NCBI GenBank assembly: GCA_965261395.1
Contig: OZ253462.1
Span: 2,240,001 to 2,304,000 of the forward strand
Source of the DNA: Candidatus Latescibacterota bacterium
GTDB taxonomy: Bacteria; Latescibacterota; UBA2968; UBA8231
Length of the DNA stretch: 64,000 nt
Direction: 5' to 3'
Under the pieces are notes generated by a model. That model was given only the letters and a program-made list of their open reading frames with translations, made no database searches and had not been told where the DNA came from. Position numbers and translations under genes: made by a program. Positions 14,571 through 22,915 of this stretch are shown piece by piece (positions within the stretch are counted from its first letter, which is position 1; each line of letters begins with the position of its first letter).

Positions 14571-16637
14571 ATGGACTACGAAAAGCTTAAAGCACATCAG
14601 ACGGTTTTGCTAGATCTCTATACATCCTTGAGCGAAACCCTTAAAAGAGAGGGTGATGAGGTTGATTCAGACCTAAAGGCGATGCAAGAGAATATTGCAG
14701 CGGAGAAGTTTTTGCTCGCCATCGTTGGGGAAGTAAAGGCAGGGAAATCGACCTTCATCAATGCAATTCTTGGGGAGGCCATGTTGCCTTCTGATGATCT
14801 ACAAGCGACCTCTCAAATAGTTGAAATCTACAAATCTAATAAGATAGAGGTTGGATCTACTTTCGCTAATGGCAGATCGGAAGTCGTTGAGGAAGATAAA
14901 GCAGTTCCATTTCTCAAAGAAATTGCTTCCATCAATGACGATTCTCGCGGTATTCCAATCGTCCAAGTCAGCAGATTCCTGATTGATCATTACAGCGAAG
15001 CAAAGAGAATGGCTGTATTTAAGGAAAAAGAATTGGAGAATTTCTTAAACTCTGATCTTGAAAACATCTATAAATTAGATAAGGAGGAATTTCAAGGAAA
15101 AATCCGCGAATATATCAAGAAAAATATATCATGTGATAAGATTCCCCAAAGAGTTTCCCTCGGTTATCCACATGATTTTTCTGAATTCAAGCATTTCAGA
15201 GTCGTAGATACGCCAGGTATTAATGCGATTGGCGGAATTGAAGATCAAACGAAAGACTTCATTGACGAGGCTGATGCGGTTGTTTATTTGCACGACGCAA
15301 GCCAACTAGAAAGTAAAGCACTTCGCAATGCATTGGAAAAGGAAATCCCTAAAAGGGTTAAAGATCGTCTGATACTTGTCTTGACTCATAGAAGCGAGAA
15401 ATTTTATCCTGGTAGCGATGAACATGAGAAAATATTGAGAGAGGCTAAGAAGCTTTACTCTGAGATTGGATCAGATAACATCTTTTTTGTTGATAGTCTG
15501 ATTGAGCTACATTTGAAAGAGTTCTATGGGAAATCGATGGATGAGATCGATGCTATTCGCAAAGAAGATCCGCAATTACGAAGTTTAACCGCTAGTTGTT
15601 TTGAGGAGGCTGATGGTAATGAATATGTCCTTCTAGACCTATTAGAAGAACAGTCGAATTTCAGAGAAATTCGAGAAAGAATCGAAAGAGACTCAATAGA
15701 TTCTGCTTCTTTTCAAATGAAGAATTTTGCTAGTGCCATGCAAGAAGTGTATGGAGTTATTGAAAAAGAAATTAAAGTACGCATAGCAGACCTGAGAGAG
15801 GATTATAGGGATCCTCAGTTTTTTGCGTCGAAGATACAGAATCAAAAAGATAAAATGGAAAGAATGAAAAGAGATTACAATGAATTTAAAGACAGATTGA
15901 GGGTAGAATTCTCTCCTAGTGATGAGAACAGCAGGTATTCTCAAGAAGTAAATAAAATGATGAAGAGGTTGTCTGACAGGATTAGGAAGAAAATTTTTGA
16001 GCCTAACGACCATAATGACCAGAAAGAAGTAAAAGTCCAGCATTGGGTAAGGACTTTGCACCGCAAATTTGATAATGAAATGGCCAGTTTTGTTGATACA
16101 CTGAATGTAAATTTCCAAAAAGAAATAGAGGTATCGTATAGGAATGTTGGAGTACAAATTGATCACGAAATAAACGTGCCAATGACACCTTTGGACAGTA
16201 TATGGGATACTGTATCCAATGCAGTCGAGGAGAAGACAAATAAGGAATTAGCCGAGGTGGAGAAAAATTTTCGGGATCGTGTAAAATTTGTTTTTTTTCG
16301 TAGATACACTGAAGCTACAGAGGGTAAAAGAGACGAAATAAGGAGTTCTTTTCCAATATACTATTGGGACGAACTACGACCTGAGCTTAGAGAACTCTAC
16401 AAGGGGACAAAGACTAAATTGTCGAAGCAAATCAGTGCGATGATAAATAGCACCTGTGAGGAATATGAGAGTAAACTAGATAGAGAACTTCTAGAGCAAA
16501 AGCAGGATATGAAGAAATTTGAGGAGGATAAAATGAAAAATGAAAAATTAGGAAAAAATATTTTAAGTCTTGAAGAAAAAGAGAAAATAATTAATGATAA
16601 CATTCAAGAATGTATAAGAGTAGGAGGGGAACTGTAA
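14571..16637 (+). CDS. Dynamin-like GTPase
   Basis: G1 GEVKAGKST, G2 Thr in LQATS, G3 DTPG, divergent G4 THRSE; long helical/coiled-coil C-terminus; strongly AT-rich. Confidence 0.85.
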   Translation: MDYEKLKAHQTVLLDLYTSLSETLKREGDEVDSDLKAMQENIAAEKFLLAIVGEVKAGKSTFINAILGEAMLPSDDLQATSQIVEIYKSNKIEVGSTFANGRSEVVEEDKAVPFLKEIASINDDSRGIPIVQVSRFLIDHYSEAKRMAVFKEKELENFLNSDLENIYKLDKEEFQGKIREYIKKNISCDKIPQRVSLGYPHDFSEFKHFRVVDTPGINAIGGIEDQTKDFIDEADAVVYLHDASQLESKALRNALEKEIPKRVKDRLILVLTHRSEKFYPGSDEHEKILREAKKLYSEIGSDNIFFVDSLIELHLKEFYGKSMDEIDAIRKEDPQLRSLTASCFEEADGNEYVLLDLLEEQSNFREIRERIERDSIDSASFQMKNFASAMQEVYGVIEKEIKVRIADLREDYRDPQFFASKIQNQKDKMERMKRDYNEFKDRLRVEFSPSDENSRYSQEVNKMMKRLSDRIRKKIFEPNDHNDQKEVKVQHWVRTLHRKFDNEMASFVDTLNVNFQKEIEVSYRNVGVQIDHEINVPMTPLDSIWDTVSNAVEEKTNKELAEVEKNFRDRVKFVFFRRYTEATEGKRDEIRSSFPIYYWDELRPELRELYKGTKTKLSKQISAMINSTCEEYESKLDRELLEQKQDMKKFEEDKMKNEKLGKNILSLEEKEKIINDNIQECIRVGGEL

Positions 16638-16647
16638 TGGAACTACC

Positions 16648-16791
16648 ATGCGTACCCGACTACTGACGTGTGAACTGATCGGACTCTCTGAAAAGTTCAC
16701 ACAGTTCGTCGCCGAGATGAACAGCTTTGTTTTGGATGTCGCTATGCTGATTTGTATTGAGATGATCGGCTGGCCTATATCAGTAAAATAA
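16648..16791 (+). other. Possible 47-aa small ORF or gene remnant between dynamin and HerA genes
   Basis: ATG 16648 to TAA 16791 (MRTRLLTCELIGLSEKF...GWPISVK); a 9-codon ORF also starts at the TAATG overlap (16637) behind a strong AGGAGGGG RBS. Confidence 0.25.
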
Positions 16792-16812
16792 TACCCGTAG
16801 AGGAAAAAGATA

Positions 16813-19800
16813 ATGGAAAATCTGAACGATAAATCACTAGCCCTTGAAAAGCAAAAGGGGCTGGACCAGGAAAAAGGTGCTGAAGAACTCAACGAAATTT
16901 TCTCAGACCTTCTCCCTTGGACTATTGAGTCAACAGATGCTGCTATCCTGACAGAGAATACCATACAGAATCGCGACGAAATCGAGAGATTTTTCGATTC
17001 GATTTATTTGTTCCATATTGGAGAAATTTCTGTTTCTGCAGATGCTCAAGATGTAGCTGATTTGATTTATAAAAGACATCAAGCCGTGACTATTGCCGCG
17101 TATCAGTCAGATTATATGCTTACGACGATTATTTCGGGGAACGGTGGAGGCACTGTTGATATTTTTCTCGGTGTCTGTGGAGAGGTTGATGTGAAGAATA
17201 TGTTCCGGGAGCAATTGCAGGGGGTTTATCCCGGAAGGGGCATCCAATTTGAGGATGAGTCCAGAGAAGGAAGCATAAAGGATAGACTGCAAGAAAAGAA
17301 GCATGGCGGAATCCTCACAGGCATACCGACACAGAAAATAGACGAGGAAAAGCAGACATTCGATCTCTCTTCGGTGATAAGAAGTATGAATGGGCAGGAA
17401 TTCCTCTTGGCGATAATTTCCCGTCCAGTCGAAAAGCGTGAGGCAGCACAACAACTCCATGAATTGATGGAGCTAAAAGATCGATGTCATGTGCTAGCAA
17501 ACAGGACAATCGGTTCTGATGAGAATGTAAGCGTAAACCAGAGCCATGCAGTTCAAGAAGCAGTAGGTGAATCAAATTCGCATGGGTTCAATGTAGGAAT
17601 AGGAATGAATCCTGGGGGCCAAAATACAGGTTGGAATGCTATTCTCTATTCGTCCACTAAAATGACTCCAATGATGGCAGTTCTGCCTTCTGCAGGCTAT
17701 TCTTACACAAAAACAAAATTCTCAAGCTATGCAGAAACAGATACTACTGGCTGGTCAGAGAACATTGGGCGAAGTCTTTCTTTTGAACAGCAAAATACCC
17801 TTGCGATGGAGTTGGAAGATATCGCGGGAAAGTTGATAACCAGATTGCGTAATGGTCTAAACATTGGACTTTGGGAGAGTTTCATCACCTACGCGACTAT
17901 ATCCCCTACAGCTTCTCAGATTTTATCCGGCGTTTTAGCAGGAGAACTGATCAAGGCCGATCCCGAAGCACTGCCGATGCGAAATGTCTTCGATCATCTA
18001 TCCAAAGAAGTTCCGCTCTTTATGCCCAAGAAGCGGGATGGAAAATCTCTTATAACCGGGAATAAACTGGTATCGTTCTTGTCGAGCGATGAAGCAGCAT
18101 TGCTCATGGCACCACCGCTTTCTTCTGTTCCCGGCTATGATATCCGCATCAAACCCGCATTAAGTCTGACAGATACCATAGACCGCTCTGGTCACCCAAT
18201 TGGTCATATTTCTGAGCACGGAAGAAAGGTGAAAGGCTCTGAGTTTAGAATATCTAAAGAGGATGCCCGGAAACATATCTTCGTTTCTGGTCTTACCGGA
18301 TCGGGAAAGACGACGACAGTTAAGCACATCCTGGATTGTATTGATGCGCCTTTCTTGGTGATTGAATCCGCCAAGAGAGAATACCGCAGATTGTTGGCTG
18401 AGGATAAATACGACAAAAATCTGCGCGTCTATACTGTTGGTGATTCAGGCGTTTCACCGATACGTCACAATCCTTTTATGGTACTTCCTAGGGTGTCTGT
18501 CATCACCCATATTGACAATCTCAAGTCTATTTTTTACGCGAGCTTCTCACTCTACGGGCCTATGCCCTATATCCTCGAAAAATGTATTTACAATATCTAC
18601 AAAGAGCGCGGGTGGAATCTGACCACTGGCAAACATCAGCGCGTCAGAATAGGCACTTTCGAGGATTGCCAGAATCACCGCTTCATCTATCCCACCATCA
18701 GAGATCTGATTGATGAGGTGAACCGATATGTGAAGGAGGAATTGGAGTATAAAGGAGAACTACAGGACAATATCCGCAGTGCAATTGTTGTCCGTCTCGA
18801 ATCTTTGGCTGTCGGAGCAAAAGGTTTCCTCTTTAACACACACGATGCGATTGACATAGAGGAATTTCTAAACGAAAGGGTTGTGCTTGAACTCGAATCC
18901 CTTTCCGATGATGACGATAAAGCATTCTTTGTCGGTTTGATGCTATCCTTAGTGAGCGAATATCGACAATCGTTGGCCCGCCAGAGCGTTCTGAATGACA
19001 ATGATGATCTACGGCATGTGTTGGTGATCGAAGAAGCGCACAGGCTGCTTAAAAATGTACAGACTGAGCGCACTAGTGAAATGTTGGGTAATCCCAAAGG
19101 AAAAGCCGTGGAGTCTTTCTGTAATCTCATTGCCGAAATGCGATCTTATGGTCAAGGCGTGATCGTCGCAGAGCAAATCCCGACCAAAATAGCCCCTGAT
19201 GTGATCAAGAATACTAATACGAAAATTATTCACAGGCTTGTTTCTTTAGATGACCAGATCACCGTAGGGACGGGATTAGGGTTGGAGGAACACGAATGCC
19301 GATATCTGAACCAGCTTTCTGCGGGCACAGCGCTCGCACATAAAGAGGGGATGTCAAAACCCGTTGAAATTGCCGTCTTTAACAAGCTGCAAAATGAGCC
19401 AATTGGAGACATACGAATCGAACGTCAAGATTTGGAGTCGGAACTGGCTCTACACGAGAGTGGCTTGCTGGAAAGTGAGCACCTACAAGCAATCGCTCTG
19501 AGATTGGTCAATTCGGTTTTTCTGTCAAATTTAGAACTCGGCGAACTCTTACCCGATGCAATAAAGACAGCTAGAAAAGCAAAACAACTTACGTACGTAG
19601 AGGATAAAACCATAGAACATGCTTTGAGCGAATGGTTTCGCCGAATTTTATTTTCCTCAACGTTGGGTTTTGTGAAGGAAAAATCGATTGATGAAGAGGT
19701 TTTAGAGATTGTTGATCGACTTTGGCATGATCGCACTCGTTTTAATCGCGGGAGATTCATGCACGAATTTGACGAGTGGTTGGGTGATTGTAGTCGCGAC

Positions 19801-19950
19801 CGCATCAAGGAGAACATATCAAACGATGTTATTTCTGAATATAGCTCAAGGAAAATAGACATGAGGGAAACCATTGACAAAATACTGATTGTCGATGACT
19901 TGGAGATTGAGCAAGAAATAATGAACGCCGTTAGAAAGAGACTTATGTGA
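16813..19950 (+). CDS. HerA/FtsK-superfamily ATPase (DUF87-like) with long N-terminal extension
   Basis: HIFVSGLTGSGKT Walker A, LVIEEAH Walker B, EMRSYG Arg finger, EQIP sensor, NTNTKIIHRL. Confidence 0.88.
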   Translation: MENLNDKSLALEKQKGLDQEKGAEELNEIFSDLLPWTIESTDAAILTENTIQNRDEIERFFDSIYLFHIGEISVSADAQDVADLIYKRHQAVTIAAYQSDYMLTTIISGNGGGTVDIFLGVCGEVDVKNMFREQLQGVYPGRGIQFEDESREGSIKDRLQEKKHGGILTGIPTQKIDEEKQTFDLSSVIRSMNGQEFLLAIISRPVEKREAAQQLHELMELKDRCHVLANRTIGSDENVSVNQSHAVQEAVGESNSHGFNVGIGMNPGGQNTGWNAILYSSTKMTPMMAVLPSAGYSYTKTKFSSYAETDTTGWSENIGRSLSFEQQNTLAMELEDIAGKLITRLRNGLNIGLWESFITYATISPTASQILSGVLAGELIKADPEALPMRNVFDHLSKEVPLFMPKKRDGKSLITGNKLVSFLSSDEAALLMAPPLSSVPGYDIRIKPALSLTDTIDRSGHPIGHISEHGRKVKGSEFRISKEDARKHIFVSGLTGSGKTTTVKHILDCIDAPFLVIESAKREYRRLLAEDKYDKNLRVYTVGDSGVSPIRHNPFMVLPRVSVITHIDNLKSIFYASFSLYGPMPYILEKCIYNIYKERGWNLTTGKHQRVRIGTFEDCQNHRFIYPTIRDLIDEVNRYVKEELEYKGELQDNIRSAIVVRLESLAVGAKGFLFNTHDAIDIEEFLNERVVLELESLSDDDDKAFFVGLMLSLVSEYRQSLARQSVLNDNDDLRHVLVIEEAHRLLKNVQTERTSEMLGNPKGKAVESFCNLIAEMRSYGQGVIVAEQIPTKIAPDVIKNTNTKIIHRLVSLDDQITVGTGLGLEEHECRYLNQLSAGTALAHKEGMSKPVEIAVFNKLQNEPIGDIRIERQDLESELALHESGLLESEHLQAIALRLVNSVFLSNLELGELLPDAIKTARKAKQLTYVEDKTIEHALSEWFRRILFSSTLGFVKEKSIDEEVLEIVDRLWHDRTRFNRGRFMHEFDEWLGDCSRDRIKENISNDVISEYSSRKIDMRETIDKILIVDDLEIEQEIMNAVRKRLM

Positions 19951-20498
19951 TGGTTGTTGAAACCGCGATAGGTCCCGCTGCGGCGGGAGGTGTTGCTGAA
20001 GCCGTTACGGTTGTGGAAGCCGCTGAAGCGGCTGAGAACATCGTCGAGTCCCCAATAAGTGGGGCAGCCGAGTTGAGTGAAACCCTTTCTGCAATCCAGA
20101 AAGAGATTCCTCGGGAAATCGTCAATGGAAAGGTTGAGGCCACGCTCCAGGATGAGTCTTTCCGCGCTGAAATTTTGGAAGCAACATATCCCGATTTCTC
20201 TGAAAATTGTAGATTCGAGACCCATCTTCCCGATGATCAATACAAGGCAAATGATTATCAGCATTTCAAGTATTGTAATGAGCAATTGAGTCAAGCTCAT
20301 GAAAATGGCAGTCTCAACATAGAGCAATTCACAGATCGGCAACTGGAACAGATCCGTAATGGAGATAAACCCGAGGGATATACCTGGCACCACCATGAAG
20401 AGCCAGGACGCATGCAGTTAGTAGATTCTGAAATACACGCCAAGACTCCGCATACTGGTGGCAGGAGCCTGTGGGGTGGTGGCGGTGAAGCCCGATAG
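19950..20498 (+). CDS. HNH-fold nuclease toxin, WHH family
   Basis: YPDF, GYTWHHHEEPGRMQLV, HAKTPHTGG; TGATG overlap with the HerA stop (GTG at 19947 also possible). Confidence 0.87.
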   Translation: MVVETAIGPAAAGGVAEAVTVVEAAEAAENIVESPISGAAELSETLSAIQKEIPREIVNGKVEATLQDESFRAEILEATYPDFSENCRFETHLPDDQYKANDYQHFKYCNEQLSQAHENGSLNIEQFTDRQLEQIRNGDKPEGYTWHHHEEPGRMQLVDSEIHAKTPHTGGRSLWGGGGEAR

Positions 20499-20513
20499 AA
20501 AAGAGAGCATACT

Positions 20514-20912
20514 ATGAGCTTAAAGTGGAAATACGTCGAGCCATTGGACGAGAGCCAATTGTCTAAAGTCGAGGAACATTTCGGCCTCAGCTTGCCGGAG
20601 GATTACAAGAAATCACTTGTGGAATGCAATAGGGGAAAACCCACGTTAGAAAGGTTTGACACCGAATTTCAAAAGGAATGTGTCCTCGATTATATGATCA
20701 ATCTTGAGGAAACGGTCGCCATTGCCCAAGCAATCTCTTCTGAATATGGCGTCGATAACCTAATCCCCATAGGACGAGACCCGTTTGGGAATCTGATTGC
20801 CTTTAGAATTGTAGGTAAGCAGATTGATTCGGTGATTTTTTGGGATCACGAAAGAGGTAAAATTTCTAAGATATCAGATAGTCTCACTGAGTTTCTGGAG
20901 AACCTATACTAG
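20514..20912 (+). CDS. SMI1/KNR4 (SUKH) immunity protein
   Basis: VEEHFGLSLPEDYK, NRG, IPIGRDPFGN, IFWDHE, ISDSLTEFLENL; directly downstream of the nuclease. Confidence 0.9.
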   Translation: MSLKWKYVEPLDESQLSKVEEHFGLSLPEDYKKSLVECNRGKPTLERFDTEFQKECVLDYMINLEETVAIAQAISSEYGVDNLIPIGRDPFGNLIAFRIVGKQIDSVIFWDHERGKISKISDSLTEFLENLY

Positions 20913-20913
20913 G

Positions 20914-21225
20914 ATGTCTGATATGCCAGTGTCGGCGACAGCAATTCCCAATGAGTACCGCGCTGATGTAGCTCGGGCGGTGGAGATCTGCAAGGCGGAG
21001 GGATGTCGAGACGTATTTATATTTGGCTCGGTCGCAGCCGGCCGGCATCGGCCGCAGTCCGATCTGGATATAGGTGTCCGTGGCTGTCCGCCCGAGCACT
21101 TCTATCGGCTACTAGGTCGATTGATGGATGAACTCACCCATCCCGTGGACTTGGTTGATCTGGATCTTGAAATCCGAGTCGCTGAATTCCTTGAGCAGGA
21201 AGGTCAACTCGTGCGTGTTGGCTGA
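20914..21225 (+). CDS. Minimal nucleotidyltransferase (MNT antitoxin-type), no intact HEPN partner seen
   Basis: FIFGSVAAG...SDLDIGV (GS-x-DxD), PVDLVDL; 103 aa. Confidence 0.82.
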   Translation: MSDMPVSATAIPNEYRADVARAVEICKAEGCRDVFIFGSVAAGRHRPQSDLDIGVRGCPPEHFYRLLGRLMDELTHPVDLVDLDLEIRVAEFLEQEGQLVRVG

Positions 21226-21293
21226 GGCCCCCTGCCAAGAGAAAGTGGAGCACAAAATCGCTTATACGCTCTTTCGCAAGAGGATTCTATAGC

Positions 21294-22109
21294 TCATCCT
21301 TCCCCCTTCCACGGCGCACCGGGCAGAAGCGCAATGAGCCGCGCCAAAACCTTCTGGGCCGCCTCTCCCATGTCCCACTGATGGCCGTACGCGAGCAGGG
21401 GACTAATATCGGTTCCGAACTGTGGGTCTCGTAGTTTGAACGCCATGTTGCGTTCAAACTGGGCGCGGGTTACATGGTTGCCGCTCTGTTCCATGTAGGT
21501 GGCAAACGCTGCGACAATGCGGCTAGGATCGGCTGCCGTCCCTTCCAGAGCTATCGCCAAGTCGAATAAGTCACGACCTTTCTTGCGTTGATAGAGCGCA
21601 CGCAGCTTTGTGGCGAGAAGCTCGTCGAGTGCGTAAGTAACGACTTCAGAGGACCGGTTGAACCAACGCGAATCTACGAAAAACGGAATCCTTTTGAACC
21701 CGAATACAGAAAAATGCTCGCGGGAGTTGATCTCAATCTTCAGACGCAGGCGTATGGGCGGCGTGTCCTCGGACTCGAAGCGGTAAACTAATGTGATGCC
21801 GTCTGTTGTTTGCTTCCATTGGGGCTTGTCGAGCCAGGGGTCGAGAACTTCGTGTAACGCGTCTAGCATCGGGCCAGCGGGGCTGGGGCTGACCTGAACC
21901 AGATCAATGTCTTCGGAATAGCGGGCGGGAGGCTTCAGATGCAGCTTGTAGAGTGCCGTGCCGCCGCGGAACGCAACTCCGTTGGTCAGGACCGGATGAG
22001 AAAATATTTCGACCAGCGCTCGGCTAATGATCAGATCCTGCTCGACCTGAAAATCTTGCACCCAAGGCACCTGCGCCCGCCATGCCGTGACGTAATCGCG
22101 TGGAATCAC
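21294..22109 (-). CDS. abiEii: AbiEii-family nucleotidyltransferase toxin (type IV TA/abortive infection)
   Basis: VEQD, FRGGTALYK, RYSEDIDL, KIEIN, KLRALYQRKKGRDLFD. Confidence 0.88.
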   Translation of the reverse strand: MIPRDYVTAWRAQVPWVQDFQVEQDLIISRALVEIFSHPVLTNGVAFRGGTALYKLHLKPPARYSEDIDLVQVSPSPAGPMLDALHEVLDPWLDKPQWKQTTDGITLVYRFESEDTPPIRLRLKIEINSREHFSVFGFKRIPFFVDSRWFNRSSEVVTYALDELLATKLRALYQRKKGRDLFDLAIALEGTAADPSRIVAAFATYMEQSGNHVTRAQFERNMAFKLRDPQFGTDISPLLAYGHQWDMGEAAQKVLARLIALLPGAPWKGEG

Positions 22110-22915
22110 GCATCCACCTCAATCTCGGCGTTGACGAGCAGCCGCCAGTCCTTGGCGCGCGTCCCGTGGTTGCTGGTACCGGCTGGCAGGAGCAGAGCAG
22201 TGTCGCGCGCCCGCTGCTGCACGTGAGCCTTCAAGGGCAACGTCTTGTCCCCTGCGCCGACGAGTTCGAGAAGGTAGCCAAGACGCTGGGCCCAAGGGAT
22301 GGGAGCTGTTCGCGCCGCTGTTACCAGTAGATCAGGATCGATACGCTCGGCGAGTTCGAAGAGGACGGTTGCTGCTTGATCCAGCCCTCCGATACGTTTT
22401 TCATAACCGACCAGATCGACCGCCGTTGCCTCAATGCTTGAGGCTAGGATCGTTCCGCGCGGTGTATTGAAACTCTGAACCGGTATGTCGGCGATGCGCT
22501 TACGTGCTATAAAGGAGACTTCGACGGTGCCACAGGAGATCGACCGGCGGTTCCCGGCGAGAGCAACTTGGAATGACTGCGGACGGTGATGTGCCGCGCC
22601 GTGATACTGGGCGGCGGACAGGAGCGCAGCATAGTACGGGCGTTGCAGACGTTCCATGAGTGCCGGGATGAACTGGTCGGCAGGCAGGCAGCCAATGCGC
22701 CGATATTCTGGAGGCACGATGACGTAGAAGCCGCGAGCGGGGCTTGCGACCACTCCCTTTTTTGCCAATCGGTTCAGGGCAAGTCTGGTCGCGGCGGCGG
22801 AGACCCCAAGCGCTGTACGCAATTCCGCTGTTGCGAAGTGGTATCGGCCATCGGCAGCAAAATCGGCGATCAGATCACCGGCTCGGGGTTTGGCTATTTC
22901 CAGTTTCATGTGCAT
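22106..22915 (-). CDS. abiEi: AbiEi-family antitoxin/transcriptional regulator
   Basis: N-terminal wHTH-like region, GFYVIVPPEY, YYAALLSAAQYHGA, QRLGYLLE; 4-bp overlap with abiEii. Confidence 0.85.
   Translation of the reverse strand: MHMKLEIAKPRAGDLIADFAADGRYHFATAELRTALGVSAAATRLALNRLAKKGVVASPARGFYVIVPPEYRRIGCLPADQFIPALMERLQRPYYAALLSAAQYHGAAHHRPQSFQVALAGNRRSISCGTVEVSFIARKRIADIPVQSFNTPRGTILASSIEATAVDLVGYEKRIGGLDQAATVLFELAERIDPDLLVTAARTAPIPWAQRLGYLLELVGAGDKTLPLKAHVQQRARDTALLLPAGTSNHGTRAKDWRLLVNAEIEVDA

Follow-up and report, generated by a model that had tools for sequence, protein, structure and literature searches.

A Latescibacterota locus encoding a dynamin, a predicted VirB4-like ATPase and a DNase-immunity pair is apparently a reduced copy of a mobile five-gene cassette

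Introduction

Why should a bacterial dynamin, a large ATPase of the HerA-FtsK superfamily, a DNase toxin and the antidote for that toxin be encoded side by side? The question is raised by a locus in a 64,000-nucleotide stretch of a Candidatus Latescibacterota genome (GenBank assembly GCA_965261395.1, contig OZ253462.1, positions 2,240,001 to 2,304,000 of the forward strand), which we call the window and whose numbering is used throughout. A preliminary description, made from the letters of the window alone, had taken the four genes as a candidate conflict or toxin-delivery system that had not been reported before. Comparison with related loci now indicates that the full cassette has a fifth gene, here called MID, which encodes a small protein with a pair of hydrophobic helices and which has been lost from the window. 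We examine what the proteins of the cassette resemble, how the toxin may be attached to the ATPase, and which of several explanations best accounts for the association of these genes.

Results

Conservation and distribution of the cassette

A search with the ATPase of the window returned 2528 proteins at E ≤ 0.001, among which are many full-length sequences with 40-88% identity, and yielded 46 genomic loci. Forty-one loci (L001-L041) are close relatives, referred to here as the ingroup, and the remaining five (L042-L046), at approximately 35% identity, form an outgroup. A conserved order of five genes was found, which encode a dynamin-like GTPase, MID (~220 amino acids), the ATPase (~1040 amino acids), a toxin (~190 amino acids) and an immunity protein, and neighbouring genes of the cassette mostly overlap by a few bases. 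A dynamin homologue is located upstream on the same strand in 32 of the 41 ingroup loci, which amounts to 32 of the 34 that can be assessed; seven of the nine loci without it are contigs cut too near the ATPase gene, and L004 and L038 are truly devoid of dynamin. MID was found in 29 loci (29 of 35 assessable) when three MID queries were used. A toxin gene (160-280 codons) resides 3′ of the ATPase gene in 39 of 41 loci, L027 having no open reading frame (ORF) there and L038 only a remnant. The immunity gene (100-150 codons) comes next in 38 of 41 loci; the contig of L041 ends before it, and L036 and L038 have no such gene. The preliminary description had noted that its proposal would not hold if homologues of the ATPase rarely occurred together with dynamin or toxin and immunity genes. 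The counts given above show the opposite, and the association of the genes is far beyond chance.

Hosts of the cassette include Latescibacterota, several classes of Pseudomonadota, Bacteroidota, Ignavibacteriota, Cloacimonadota, Calditrichota, Planctomycetota (Scalindua), WOR-3, Binatia, Myxococcota, Campylobacterales, one Clostridia bin and two archaeal bins, with the reservation that taxonomic placement from metagenome bins can be wrong. Within the phylum of the window, the distribution of the ATPase is patchy, with 13 of 168 genomes carrying it and, within the genus, 5 of 31, the window genome counted. The tree of the ATPase is at odds with taxonomy, and the cassette is apparently horizontally mobile. 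No ingroup cassette was found in a plasmid collection, where none of the 53 records retrieved reached either 60% identity or 80% coverage of the query (the 20 that were listed are 27-37% identical).

One distant relative is encoded by the Exiguobacterium plasmid NZ_CP081879.1 (L047, 46403-58709), in which the gene for an ATPase of 29% identity precedes those for a WHH toxin, whose N-terminus is different, and for a SUKH protein. Upstream of it are genes for a 658-residue protein, which belongs to no Pfam family and is unlike dynamin, and for a large PD-(D/E)XK protein; the locus has neither dynamin nor MID. The existence of this trio suggests that the combination of ATPase, DNase and immunity protein is older or wider than its association with dynamin and MID. 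The outgroup ATPases have a membrane protein encoded upstream and a long protein encoded downstream. The downstream protein of L042 (8667-10343) ends in a MafB19-type deaminase, and that of L045 (10408-12951) has an OmpA domain.

The cassette genes of the window

In the window, all four genes are on the plus strand. The dynamin-like GTPase (688 amino acids) is encoded at 14571-16637 and the ATPase (1045 amino acids) at 16813-19950. The toxin ORF extends over 19947/19950-20498, with its ATG at 19950 and its stop codon at 20496-20498, and the immunity protein (132 amino acids) is encoded at 20514-20912. The TGA stop codon of the ATPase gene (19948-19950) shares its A with the ATG of the toxin gene (...CTT ATG TGA TGG...), and 15 nucleotides lie between the end of the toxin stop codon and the ATG of the immunity gene. 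The GC content is 0.36-0.47 in segments centred at approximately 15000-20500, as compared with 0.56-0.65 in both flanks. All four ORFs are full length, and their catalytic motifs are intact. None of the four proteins contains a hydrophobic segment as judged by a Kyte-Doolittle scan with a 19-residue window and a threshold of 1.6, and no secretion gene was detected among the 13 flanking ORFs scanned.

The GTPase matches Dynamin_N (9e-17; 62 bits against a cut-off of 27). The C-terminal tip of the toxin (20190-20498) matches Colicin-DNase (PF12639; 1.7e-26; 93.3 bits, cut-off 25) and WHH (PF14414; 3.9e-19; 68.6 bits, cut-off 25.1), and the immunity protein matches SMI1_KNR4 (5.8e-19; 69.4 bits, cut-off 25.4) and SUKH_6 (8.2e-19). 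These results bear out most of what the preliminary description had read from the sequence, namely four co-directional genes that are AT-rich relative to their flanks, the TGATG overlap and the 15-bp gap, the dynamin, the WHH toxin paired with SUKH immunity, and the lack of secretion genes nearby.

MID and its loss from the window

The account of a four-gene system proved to be incomplete, given that the full cassette contains MID as a fifth gene. MID is an ORF of approximately 215-230 codons between the dynamin and ATPase genes, and its product carries a conserved pair of hydrophobic helices at residues ~115-170. It belongs to no Pfam family, and a MID profile compared with solved chains gave nothing below E 0.058 and no VirB3. 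No fusion of MID to a longer protein was seen among 2582 candidates, which is weak evidence. Two of three MIDs had no match in PADLOC-DB v2.0.0, and the MID of L022 matched LeoBC weakly (4.5e-5). By analogy, the position of the gene and the predicted hairpin topology of its product recall VirB3.

Only 18 codons of MID are left in the window (16610-16666, plus strand), after which the frame stops; 16610-16645 corresponds to the first 12 residues of the L008 MID at 75% identity. The place of the gene is taken by a 175-nucleotide spacer without assigned strand (16638-16812), which is unique in the window's genome. It holds an 86-nucleotide piece (16646-16731) that is 84% identical, by blastn, to L008:12281-12366, a stretch downstream of the cassette in another Latescibacterota genome. 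The spacer also holds a weak terminator-like hairpin at 16704-16722, which came from a consensus scan that gave 11 terminator-like sites, where shuffled sequences gave 5.6 on average (standard deviation 2.7). MID was not found elsewhere in the 6.55-Mb single-contig genome, either with the L003 MID or in a tblastn search with 30 upstream-ORF queries that included MIDs. A contig from metagenome run X7 covers 16547-16905 with zero differences, and hence, the junction left by the loss of MID is real and not an artefact of this assembly.

The window is not alone in this respect. Among the 11 Latescibacterota loci and the window, MID is absent from L002, L004, L006, L011 and the window itself, and L004 has lost dynamin as well, whereas the ATPase, toxin and immunity genes are intact in all five. 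Each MID-less locus is placed beside a MID-bearing relative on the ATPase tree, which indicates that MID was lost several times. Because MID is missing and the four remaining cassette proteins have no hydrophobic segment, the window copy is without any membrane component and, as it stands, cannot be a working exporter.

In L005, a gene for a protein of ~290-300 residues with no Pfam family (L005:7008-7904) is inserted between MID and the ATPase gene, and L013 has a 288-codon ORF at the same position. The inserted protein of L005 has seven matches (50-55% identity) scattered over the genome of the window, and judging from the sequence, the insert looks like an insertion sequence (IS)-like element.

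The ATPase is predicted to have a VirB4-like fold

The preliminary description called the large protein a HerA ATPase. In an AlphaFold2 model (mean predicted local distance difference test score, pLDDT, 73), an alpha/beta N-terminal domain formed by residues 1-232 and 313-395 is interrupted by a disordered Ser/Thr/Gly loop (233-312) and followed by a small barrel (~421-480), the ATPase domain (480-860) with its Walker A motif at 493-500, and a C-terminal helical domain (874-1045). The N-terminal 405 residues folded alone gave a pLDDT of 66. When the full model was compared with solved structures by Foldseek, 83 matches were obtained at E ≤ 0.001. VirB4 was the best of them (4ag6, 2.9e-9), TrwK/VirB4 of R388 being aligned over ~960 columns, and was followed by HerA (4d2i, 1.7e-7) and then by SIR2-HerA and DndH. 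The N-terminal domain by itself matched TrwK/VirB4 in Foldseek (4.9e-4), and VIA-align superimposed it on TrwK/VirB4 residues 16-377 with Z 11.3 and a root-mean-square deviation of 4.2 Å over 228 residues, the next entry having Z 9.2 over 99 residues.

The sequence is less informative about the family. In an alignment of 30 homologues, the columns of the Walker A and Walker B motifs and of the arginine do not vary. When a profile of 30 homologues was compared with solved HerA chains, only the second half of the ATPase domain was matched (8yho, 3.2e-10; 8xau, 1.1e-8). Pfam gave nothing except sub-threshold P-loop matches (DUF87, 17.7 bits against a cut-off of 23.2; HerA_C, 15.5 against 22). The NCBIfam HerA models gave 21-33 bits against cut-offs of 800-970, and the VirB4 model NF045975 gave 39.7 bits against 590. 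The sequence, therefore, reaches no curated threshold for either VirB4 or HerA, and an Atlas search with the N-terminal part returned unnamed clusters only. HerA proper was rejected as a family label, as the protein lies below the curated cut-offs and the fold points to VirB4. Thus, the earlier name was right with regard to the superfamily, as the invariant motifs and the Foldseek matches to VirB4 and HerA indicate, but the protein is not a typical HerA; the model assigns to it the two-domain fold of VirB4, N-terminal domain and ATPase domain, within the HerA-FtsK superfamily. The ratio of nonsynonymous to synonymous substitution rates (dN/dS) of the ATPase gene is 0.15-0.21 in comparison with L003 and L001.

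A constant leader, exchangeable DNase tips and matching immunity proteins

The toxins of the cassette have two parts. A common leader of approximately 55-80 residues starts with M-(I/L/V)-E, contains a K-E-x-P block and, in most lineages, a conserved Ser-Leu-Glu-x-Leu motif; no Pfam family matches it. In the window, the leader comprises residues 1-80 (19950-20189, plus strand), which form an acidic, Ala/Glu/Val-rich N-terminal tag. This window-type leader is divergent. In the full-length alignment it can be aligned with the leaders of other WHH-tipped toxins, and its KE-x-P block matches. In the tip, neither the W-H-H residues nor the His/Gly columns that follow them vary among 17 sequences.

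When the last 120 residues of the toxins were clustered, four types of tip were obtained: WHH/colicin-DNase (18 loci and the window), LHH (11 loci), a tip with no Pfam family (nine loci) and Endonuclea_NS_2 (one locus). The clusters of immunity proteins map one-to-one on those of the tips, with no exception, genes missed by the ORF picker having been recovered by tblastn. WHH tips are accompanied by one SUKH type and LHH tips by a SUKH_5 type, and the tip that has no Pfam family goes with a DUF7832-like type. For this third tip cluster there was no Pfam match and no sequence match in PDB; Atlas gave leads only (Tox-REase-7, 0.88; Tox-REase-2, 0.87), and no family was assigned. The ATPase tree, which comes from a quick IQ-TREE run, has at least 11 changes of tip label, as against a possible minimum of five, and sister clades carry different tips (L022/L026 as against L024/L030, and L014/L016 as against L018/L019). 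Variable tips behind a conserved N-terminus had been named beforehand, in the preliminary description, as the pattern that would support polymorphic delivery, and this pattern was found.

A profile of the common leader was searched against 1.84 billion representatives, and 33 proteins were matched at E ≤ 0.001. In 30 of these the matched part begins within residues 1-10, and the chains are mostly 150-280 residues long; the exceptions are P0155 and P0156, which are matched from residues 35 and 25 onwards, respectively, and P0130, a repetitive protein of 1032 residues that was set aside. Pfam families recognised in the tips of the 32 leader-bearing proteins scanned are LHH (eight), Colicin-DNase/WHH (seven), Endonuclea_NS_2 (two), HNH (one) and Col-Pyo_DNase (one), and the rest have no family. 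Apart from one FliH match, which is probably spurious, every recognised tip is a DNase. Each locus searched has one toxin gene and one immunity gene, and L031 has one extra immunity-like match upstream. Queries with the tip and immunity families seen here detected no orphan tip or immunity cassettes at the loci searched and none elsewhere in the window's genome. In comparison with L003 and L001, dN/dS is 0.24-0.31 for the toxin gene and 0.20-0.30 for the immunity gene.

The leader is modelled on the C-terminal domain of the ATPase

A physical link between the ATPase and the toxin was something that the preliminary description had proposed to look for by modelling. We modelled residues 400-1045 of the ATPase together with the toxin, both supplied as alignments, in three runs and with three controls. 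The complex scored 0.71 (runs 0.66-0.72), whereas all three controls scored 0.00, and such a link is thus predicted. Among solved complexes, 58 of 80 attain this mark, as do 2 of 110 mismatched pairs; these counts hold only roughly since our own alignments were used. At least 81% of contacts are common to the runs, and the pLDDT of the partner is at least 69. On the toxin side, the modelled interface consists of residues 35-80, that is, of the leader and not of the DNase. On the ATPase side, it consists of the C-terminal helical domain (889-897, 919-924, 944-952, 1001-1023 and 1037-1044) and a few residues at 598-625. The C-terminal domain is the least conserved part of the ATPase when the window type is compared with distant cassettes (its identity is 17%, while that of the ATPase core is 59%), and this divergence would fit co-divergence with the leader.

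The dynamin-like GTPase

The solved sequence closest to the window dynamin is Nostoc BDLP (2j68, 5.8e-7). The G1 (GxxxxGKST) and G3 (DxPG) motifs are conserved over 32 aligned homologues. A classical G4 motif (N/T-K-x-D) is not obvious, and a conserved L-T-H is present at that position. No hydrophobic 19-mer of the window dynamin reaches 1.6; in complete cassettes, the hairpin is carried by the separate MID protein. The window dynamin is 54-60% identical to its nearest relatives, with a dN/dS of 0.35-0.42. L036 has a second dynamin-like gene (L036:12520-14610) 3′ of the cassette, a truncated toxin, and an ORF of 127 codons at the MID position.

Genomic context and evolution

In L022 (Tenacibaculum), the whole five-gene cassette lies between a type III methylase gene (Mod) and Res, which is followed by GmrSD, as if it had been inserted into a restriction-modification (R-M) operon. 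The neighbouring ORFs of L024 and L026, also from Tenacibaculum, match those of L022 in size, which suggests the same context on the basis of ORF sizes only. WYL/WCX regulators are encoded near L016 and L028 and a NERD-UvrD helicase near L010; two AAA-ATPase_like/PDDEXK_9 genes are adjacent to L020, a type I R-M system and a Piwi-domain protein to L038, and an IS66 transposase to L014. Other neighbours of the sampled loci are ordinary metabolic genes.

Only L003 shares the upstream genes of the window, with 89-90% protein identity and a synonymous divergence (dS) of 0.32-0.38. The dS of the cassette genes between these two loci is 0.61-0.91, approximately twice that of the syntenic flanks, which suggests either that alleles were replaced by recombination or that the AT-rich island evolves faster.

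Directly 3′ of the immunity gene in the window is a gene for an MntA-like nucleotidyltransferase (20914-21225), with no HEPN partner among the listed ORFs. It is followed on the minus strand by a type IV toxin-antitoxin pair, AbiEii (1.1e-37) and AbiEi (AbiEi_1, 7.5e-47), the cluster extending over 20914-22915. The window cassette is thereby placed in a small cluster of defence and toxin-antitoxin genes. A promoter scan of the window gave sites that were not above those of shuffled sequences, and neither these nor the terminator-like sites are informative. Four contigs of an RNA library match the dynamin and ATPase genes at 99-100% identity; this is a weak hint of transcription, as carry-over of DNA is possible, and parts of the locus left uncovered in RNA run X20 carry no information. 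In contigs of three metagenome runs there is a joint, 14833 to 21250, that skips 6416 nucleotides, and the depth at 20868-21300 exceeds that over the cassette several-fold. These observations may reflect related strains without the island, but the short side of the joint is 24 nucleotides, which is too weak to use.

Discussion

The window appears to carry a copy, devoid of its membrane anchor, of a horizontally mobile five-gene conflict cassette, and our tentative reading, to which we would give somewhat less than an even chance, is that the cassette is a module of the defence type in which the ATPase holds the DNase. One could envision that the DNase is made together with its immunity protein and kept inert, as in established WHH/SUKH pairs, and that its N-terminal leader parks, as modelled, on the C-terminal helical domain of an ATPase hexamer. 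In complete cassettes, MID might tie the ATPase-DNase complex to the cytoplasmic membrane beside the dynamin, a role suggested by its topology and by a gene order like that of VirB3-VirB4. Upon entry of phage or other DNA, the ATPase would either feed this DNA to the tethered DNase or strip off the immunity protein, and DNA would then be cut at the entry site or, as abortive infection, cell-wide. The dynamin could sense or repair the disturbed membrane. In the genome of the window, the soluble part alone, consisting of dynamin, ATPase, DNase and immunity protein, survives.

We favour defence because the recognised tips are DNases only, the same parts are used across very different cell envelopes, the cassette is often found among defence genes, there is one toxin per locus, and the soluble trio of ATPase, DNase and immunity protein persists where the sole membrane protein has been lost. 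The balance of genomic context, recognised tips that are all DNases and survival without MID tilts towards an abortive or defence role over delivery. Several points weigh on the other side. A VirB4-like ATPase with a membrane-hairpin partner points to a translocation machine, and the distant relatives of the ATPase are followed by long toxin-like proteins (with a MafB19-type deaminase or an OmpA domain) that look exported. We know of no immunity protein and no swappable leader-tip design in the named HerA-effector systems. The sampling of defence context covered about a dozen loci, with no statistical scoring, and the trigger and output of the cassette are ones that we infer. The MID-less copies could be products of recent decay, given that a dN/dS below 1 is not assignable to the time after the deletion. 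The relationship of the window-type leader to the common leader rests on the full-length toxin alignment, as the comparison by hhalign was not significant (E 0.031, probability 1.6%). Finally, immunity proteins that co-vary with a swappable tip behind a constant tag are a hallmark of exported polymorphic toxins (PMC3113570 and PMC3482391).

The last of these points leads to what the cassette would be if it delivered its toxin. MID and the VirB4-like ATPase could be a minimal translocase derived from a type IV secretion system (T4SS), which reads the leader and exports the DNase, while the dynamin remodels or fuses membrane and the immunity protein protects kin; the window copy would then be a disabled exporter. 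This would account for a leader that stays constant while the tips were swapped at least 11 times on the ATPase tree, tracked exactly by the immunity clusters, for the VirB4-like fold with an N-terminal domain that in R388 sits on VirB3, for a MID that resembles VirB3 in the position of its gene and in its transmembrane-hairpin topology, and for the proteins with a MafB19-type deaminase and an OmpA domain that follow the outgroup ATPases. The modelled contact of leader and ATPase could be likened to type VII secretion, in which secretion signals sit on the ATPases. The tips (WHH, LHH and Endonuclea_NS_2) and SUKH are classic parts of polymorphic toxins (PMC3113570 and PMC3482391), and another report links LeoA, a bacterial dynamin, to toxin release (PMC4159319). 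Such delivery is the strongest competitor of our reading, although we consider it somewhat unlikely. No outer-membrane or channel component is conserved, and yet the hosts comprise diderms, a monoderm (Clostridia) bin and archaeal bins. The toxins, of ~190 residues, have no receptor-binding or translocation domain, and the recognised tips are DNases only, in contrast to the mixed repertoires of known delivery systems. There are no orphan toxin or immunity arrays, five MID-less loci keep a gene for a 1000-residue ATPase intact, defence-island neighbours are frequent, and MID has no sequence match to VirB3 or to any solved chain. A bolder proposal, which we regard as unlikely, is that MID and the VirB4-like ATPase are a stripped-down translocase of T4SS descent with a new leader and a dedicated dynamin that fuses or buds membranes, so that DNase export would follow a new route open to archaea, monoderms and diderms.

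In another possible explanation, the toxin-immunity pair would maintain itself as a selfish addiction module on a mobile island, in the manner of a toxin-antitoxin pair, or the locus would be a decaying remnant, and the dynamin and ATPase of the window would be leftovers. The deletion of MID from the window and its absence from the whole genome would be expected in that case, as would the recurrent losses in the phylum (MID in the window, L002, L004, L006 and L011; dynamin in L004), the IS-like gene in L005 and L013, the AT-richness of the island, the rapid evolution of the dynamin, and a cassette dS about twice that of the syntenic flanks. However, the four ORFs are full length with intact catalytic motifs, the ATPase has the low dN/dS given above, and a bare addiction pair leaves unexplained why the order of five genes is kept across many phyla; the RNA-library contigs on the dynamin and ATPase genes are a weak hint in the same direction. 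We find this explanation doubtful. That the four genes are unrelated neighbours joined by chance on an island is extremely improbable. It is true that each family is also found alone elsewhere, and nothing beyond this speaks for chance, whereas dozens of loci in unrelated taxa repeat this arrangement, with gene order and strand unchanged and reading frames that overlap, and the toxin-ATPase interface is modelled with zero-scoring controls. The conservation of order and strand over related loci led us to reject it.

If our reading of the cassette as a conflict module is correct, the cassette would unite, in a way that we have not found in print, a membrane-remodelling dynamin with the central ATPase of DNA-transfer machines and with a toxin-antidote pair whose DNase heads are exchangeable. 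Should the module serve defence, it would be an immune system whose DNase is held on a tether at the membrane, at the point of entry of foreign DNA; should it serve export, it would be a minimal secretion route needing two membrane-associated proteins only. In either case, bacterial dynamins, whose roles are mostly unclear, gain a defined genetic partner, and a short leader and a small helical domain become a candidate docking pair. MID-less copies such as that of the window are natural "knock-outs", and their persistence can separate the two models.

How does the cassette compare with known systems? In the open literature we found no description of a cassette that combines dynamin, a HerA/VirB4 ATPase and a toxin-immunity pair, with the caveat that the gene-neighbourhood supplements of Zhang 2011/2012 might list it. 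The available portions of PMC3482391, PMC3113570 and PMC3239186 contain no "dynamin" and mention HerA only for YueA-type type VII pumps. In PADLOC-DB v2.0.0, the window proteins gave partial P-loop matches only (LeoBC, mad8 and HerA), and the LeoBC match was weak and partial (2.5e-13, best stretch 41 residues). LeoC gave 1.4e-4, no LeoA model matched, and there was no match for the toxins or immunity proteins tested. The preliminary description had suggested this comparison, and its view that the combination is novel still stands: no named system of PADLOC-DB v2.0.0 is matched in full, and the five-gene cassette is apparently undescribed.

With Eleos, an anti-phage system of two dynamin-like proteins (bioRxiv 10.1101/2022.12.12.520048), and DynA, which is described as acting in phage defence through membrane binding (PMC12998192), the cassette shares a dynamin-like GTPase in a conflict context. 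Unlike Eleos, it has one dynamin gene, and neither named system has an ATPase, nuclease or immunity gene.

The resemblance to polymorphic toxins of the type VII kind (LXG/WXG, EssC/YueA) lies in the constant N-terminal tag, the recombining nuclease tips (WHH and LHH), the SUKH gene immediately after the toxin gene, and a neighbouring gene for an ATPase of the HerA-FtsK superfamily. However, the leader of the cassette is not WXG or LXG, and the ATPase is predicted to be VirB4-like with a single ATPase domain, and is not YueA/EssC. No EsaA/EssB-type partners were seen, the tips are DNases only, orphan cassettes are lacking, and the cassette is found in diderms and archaeal bins.

The HerA-effector systems (SIR2-HerA and HerA-DUF4297) have an ATPase of the same superfamily, and the second half of the cassette ATPase domain best matches the solved chains 8yho and 8xau. 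In both cases the effector gene adjoins that of the ATPase, the effector of the cassette is modelled as ATPase-bound, and both are found in defence islands. The cassette differs in having a modelled docking site on a C-terminal helical domain, a predicted VirB4-like N-terminal domain, a membrane protein and a dynamin, and the PADLOC HerA models match part of its ATPase only.

The last comparison is with VirB3-VirB4 (TrwM-TrwK). VirB6, VirB8-VirB11, VirD4, relaxase and pilin did not turn up in the cassette flanks scanned. The ATPase scores far below the family cut-offs (as seen with NF045975) and has an extra C-terminal helical domain and the disordered Ser/Thr/Gly loop, and the cassette is coupled to a dynamin and a toxin-immunity pair. 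MID is without detectable sequence similarity to VirB3, which is about half its size. On the other hand, both the N-terminal domain and the ATPase domain of the cassette ATPase match VirB4 best structurally, and the gene for a small transmembrane-hairpin protein, MID, is located directly upstream and is translationally coupled to the ATPase gene; titles of R388 structures name VirB3 together with VirB4 in the inner-membrane complex.

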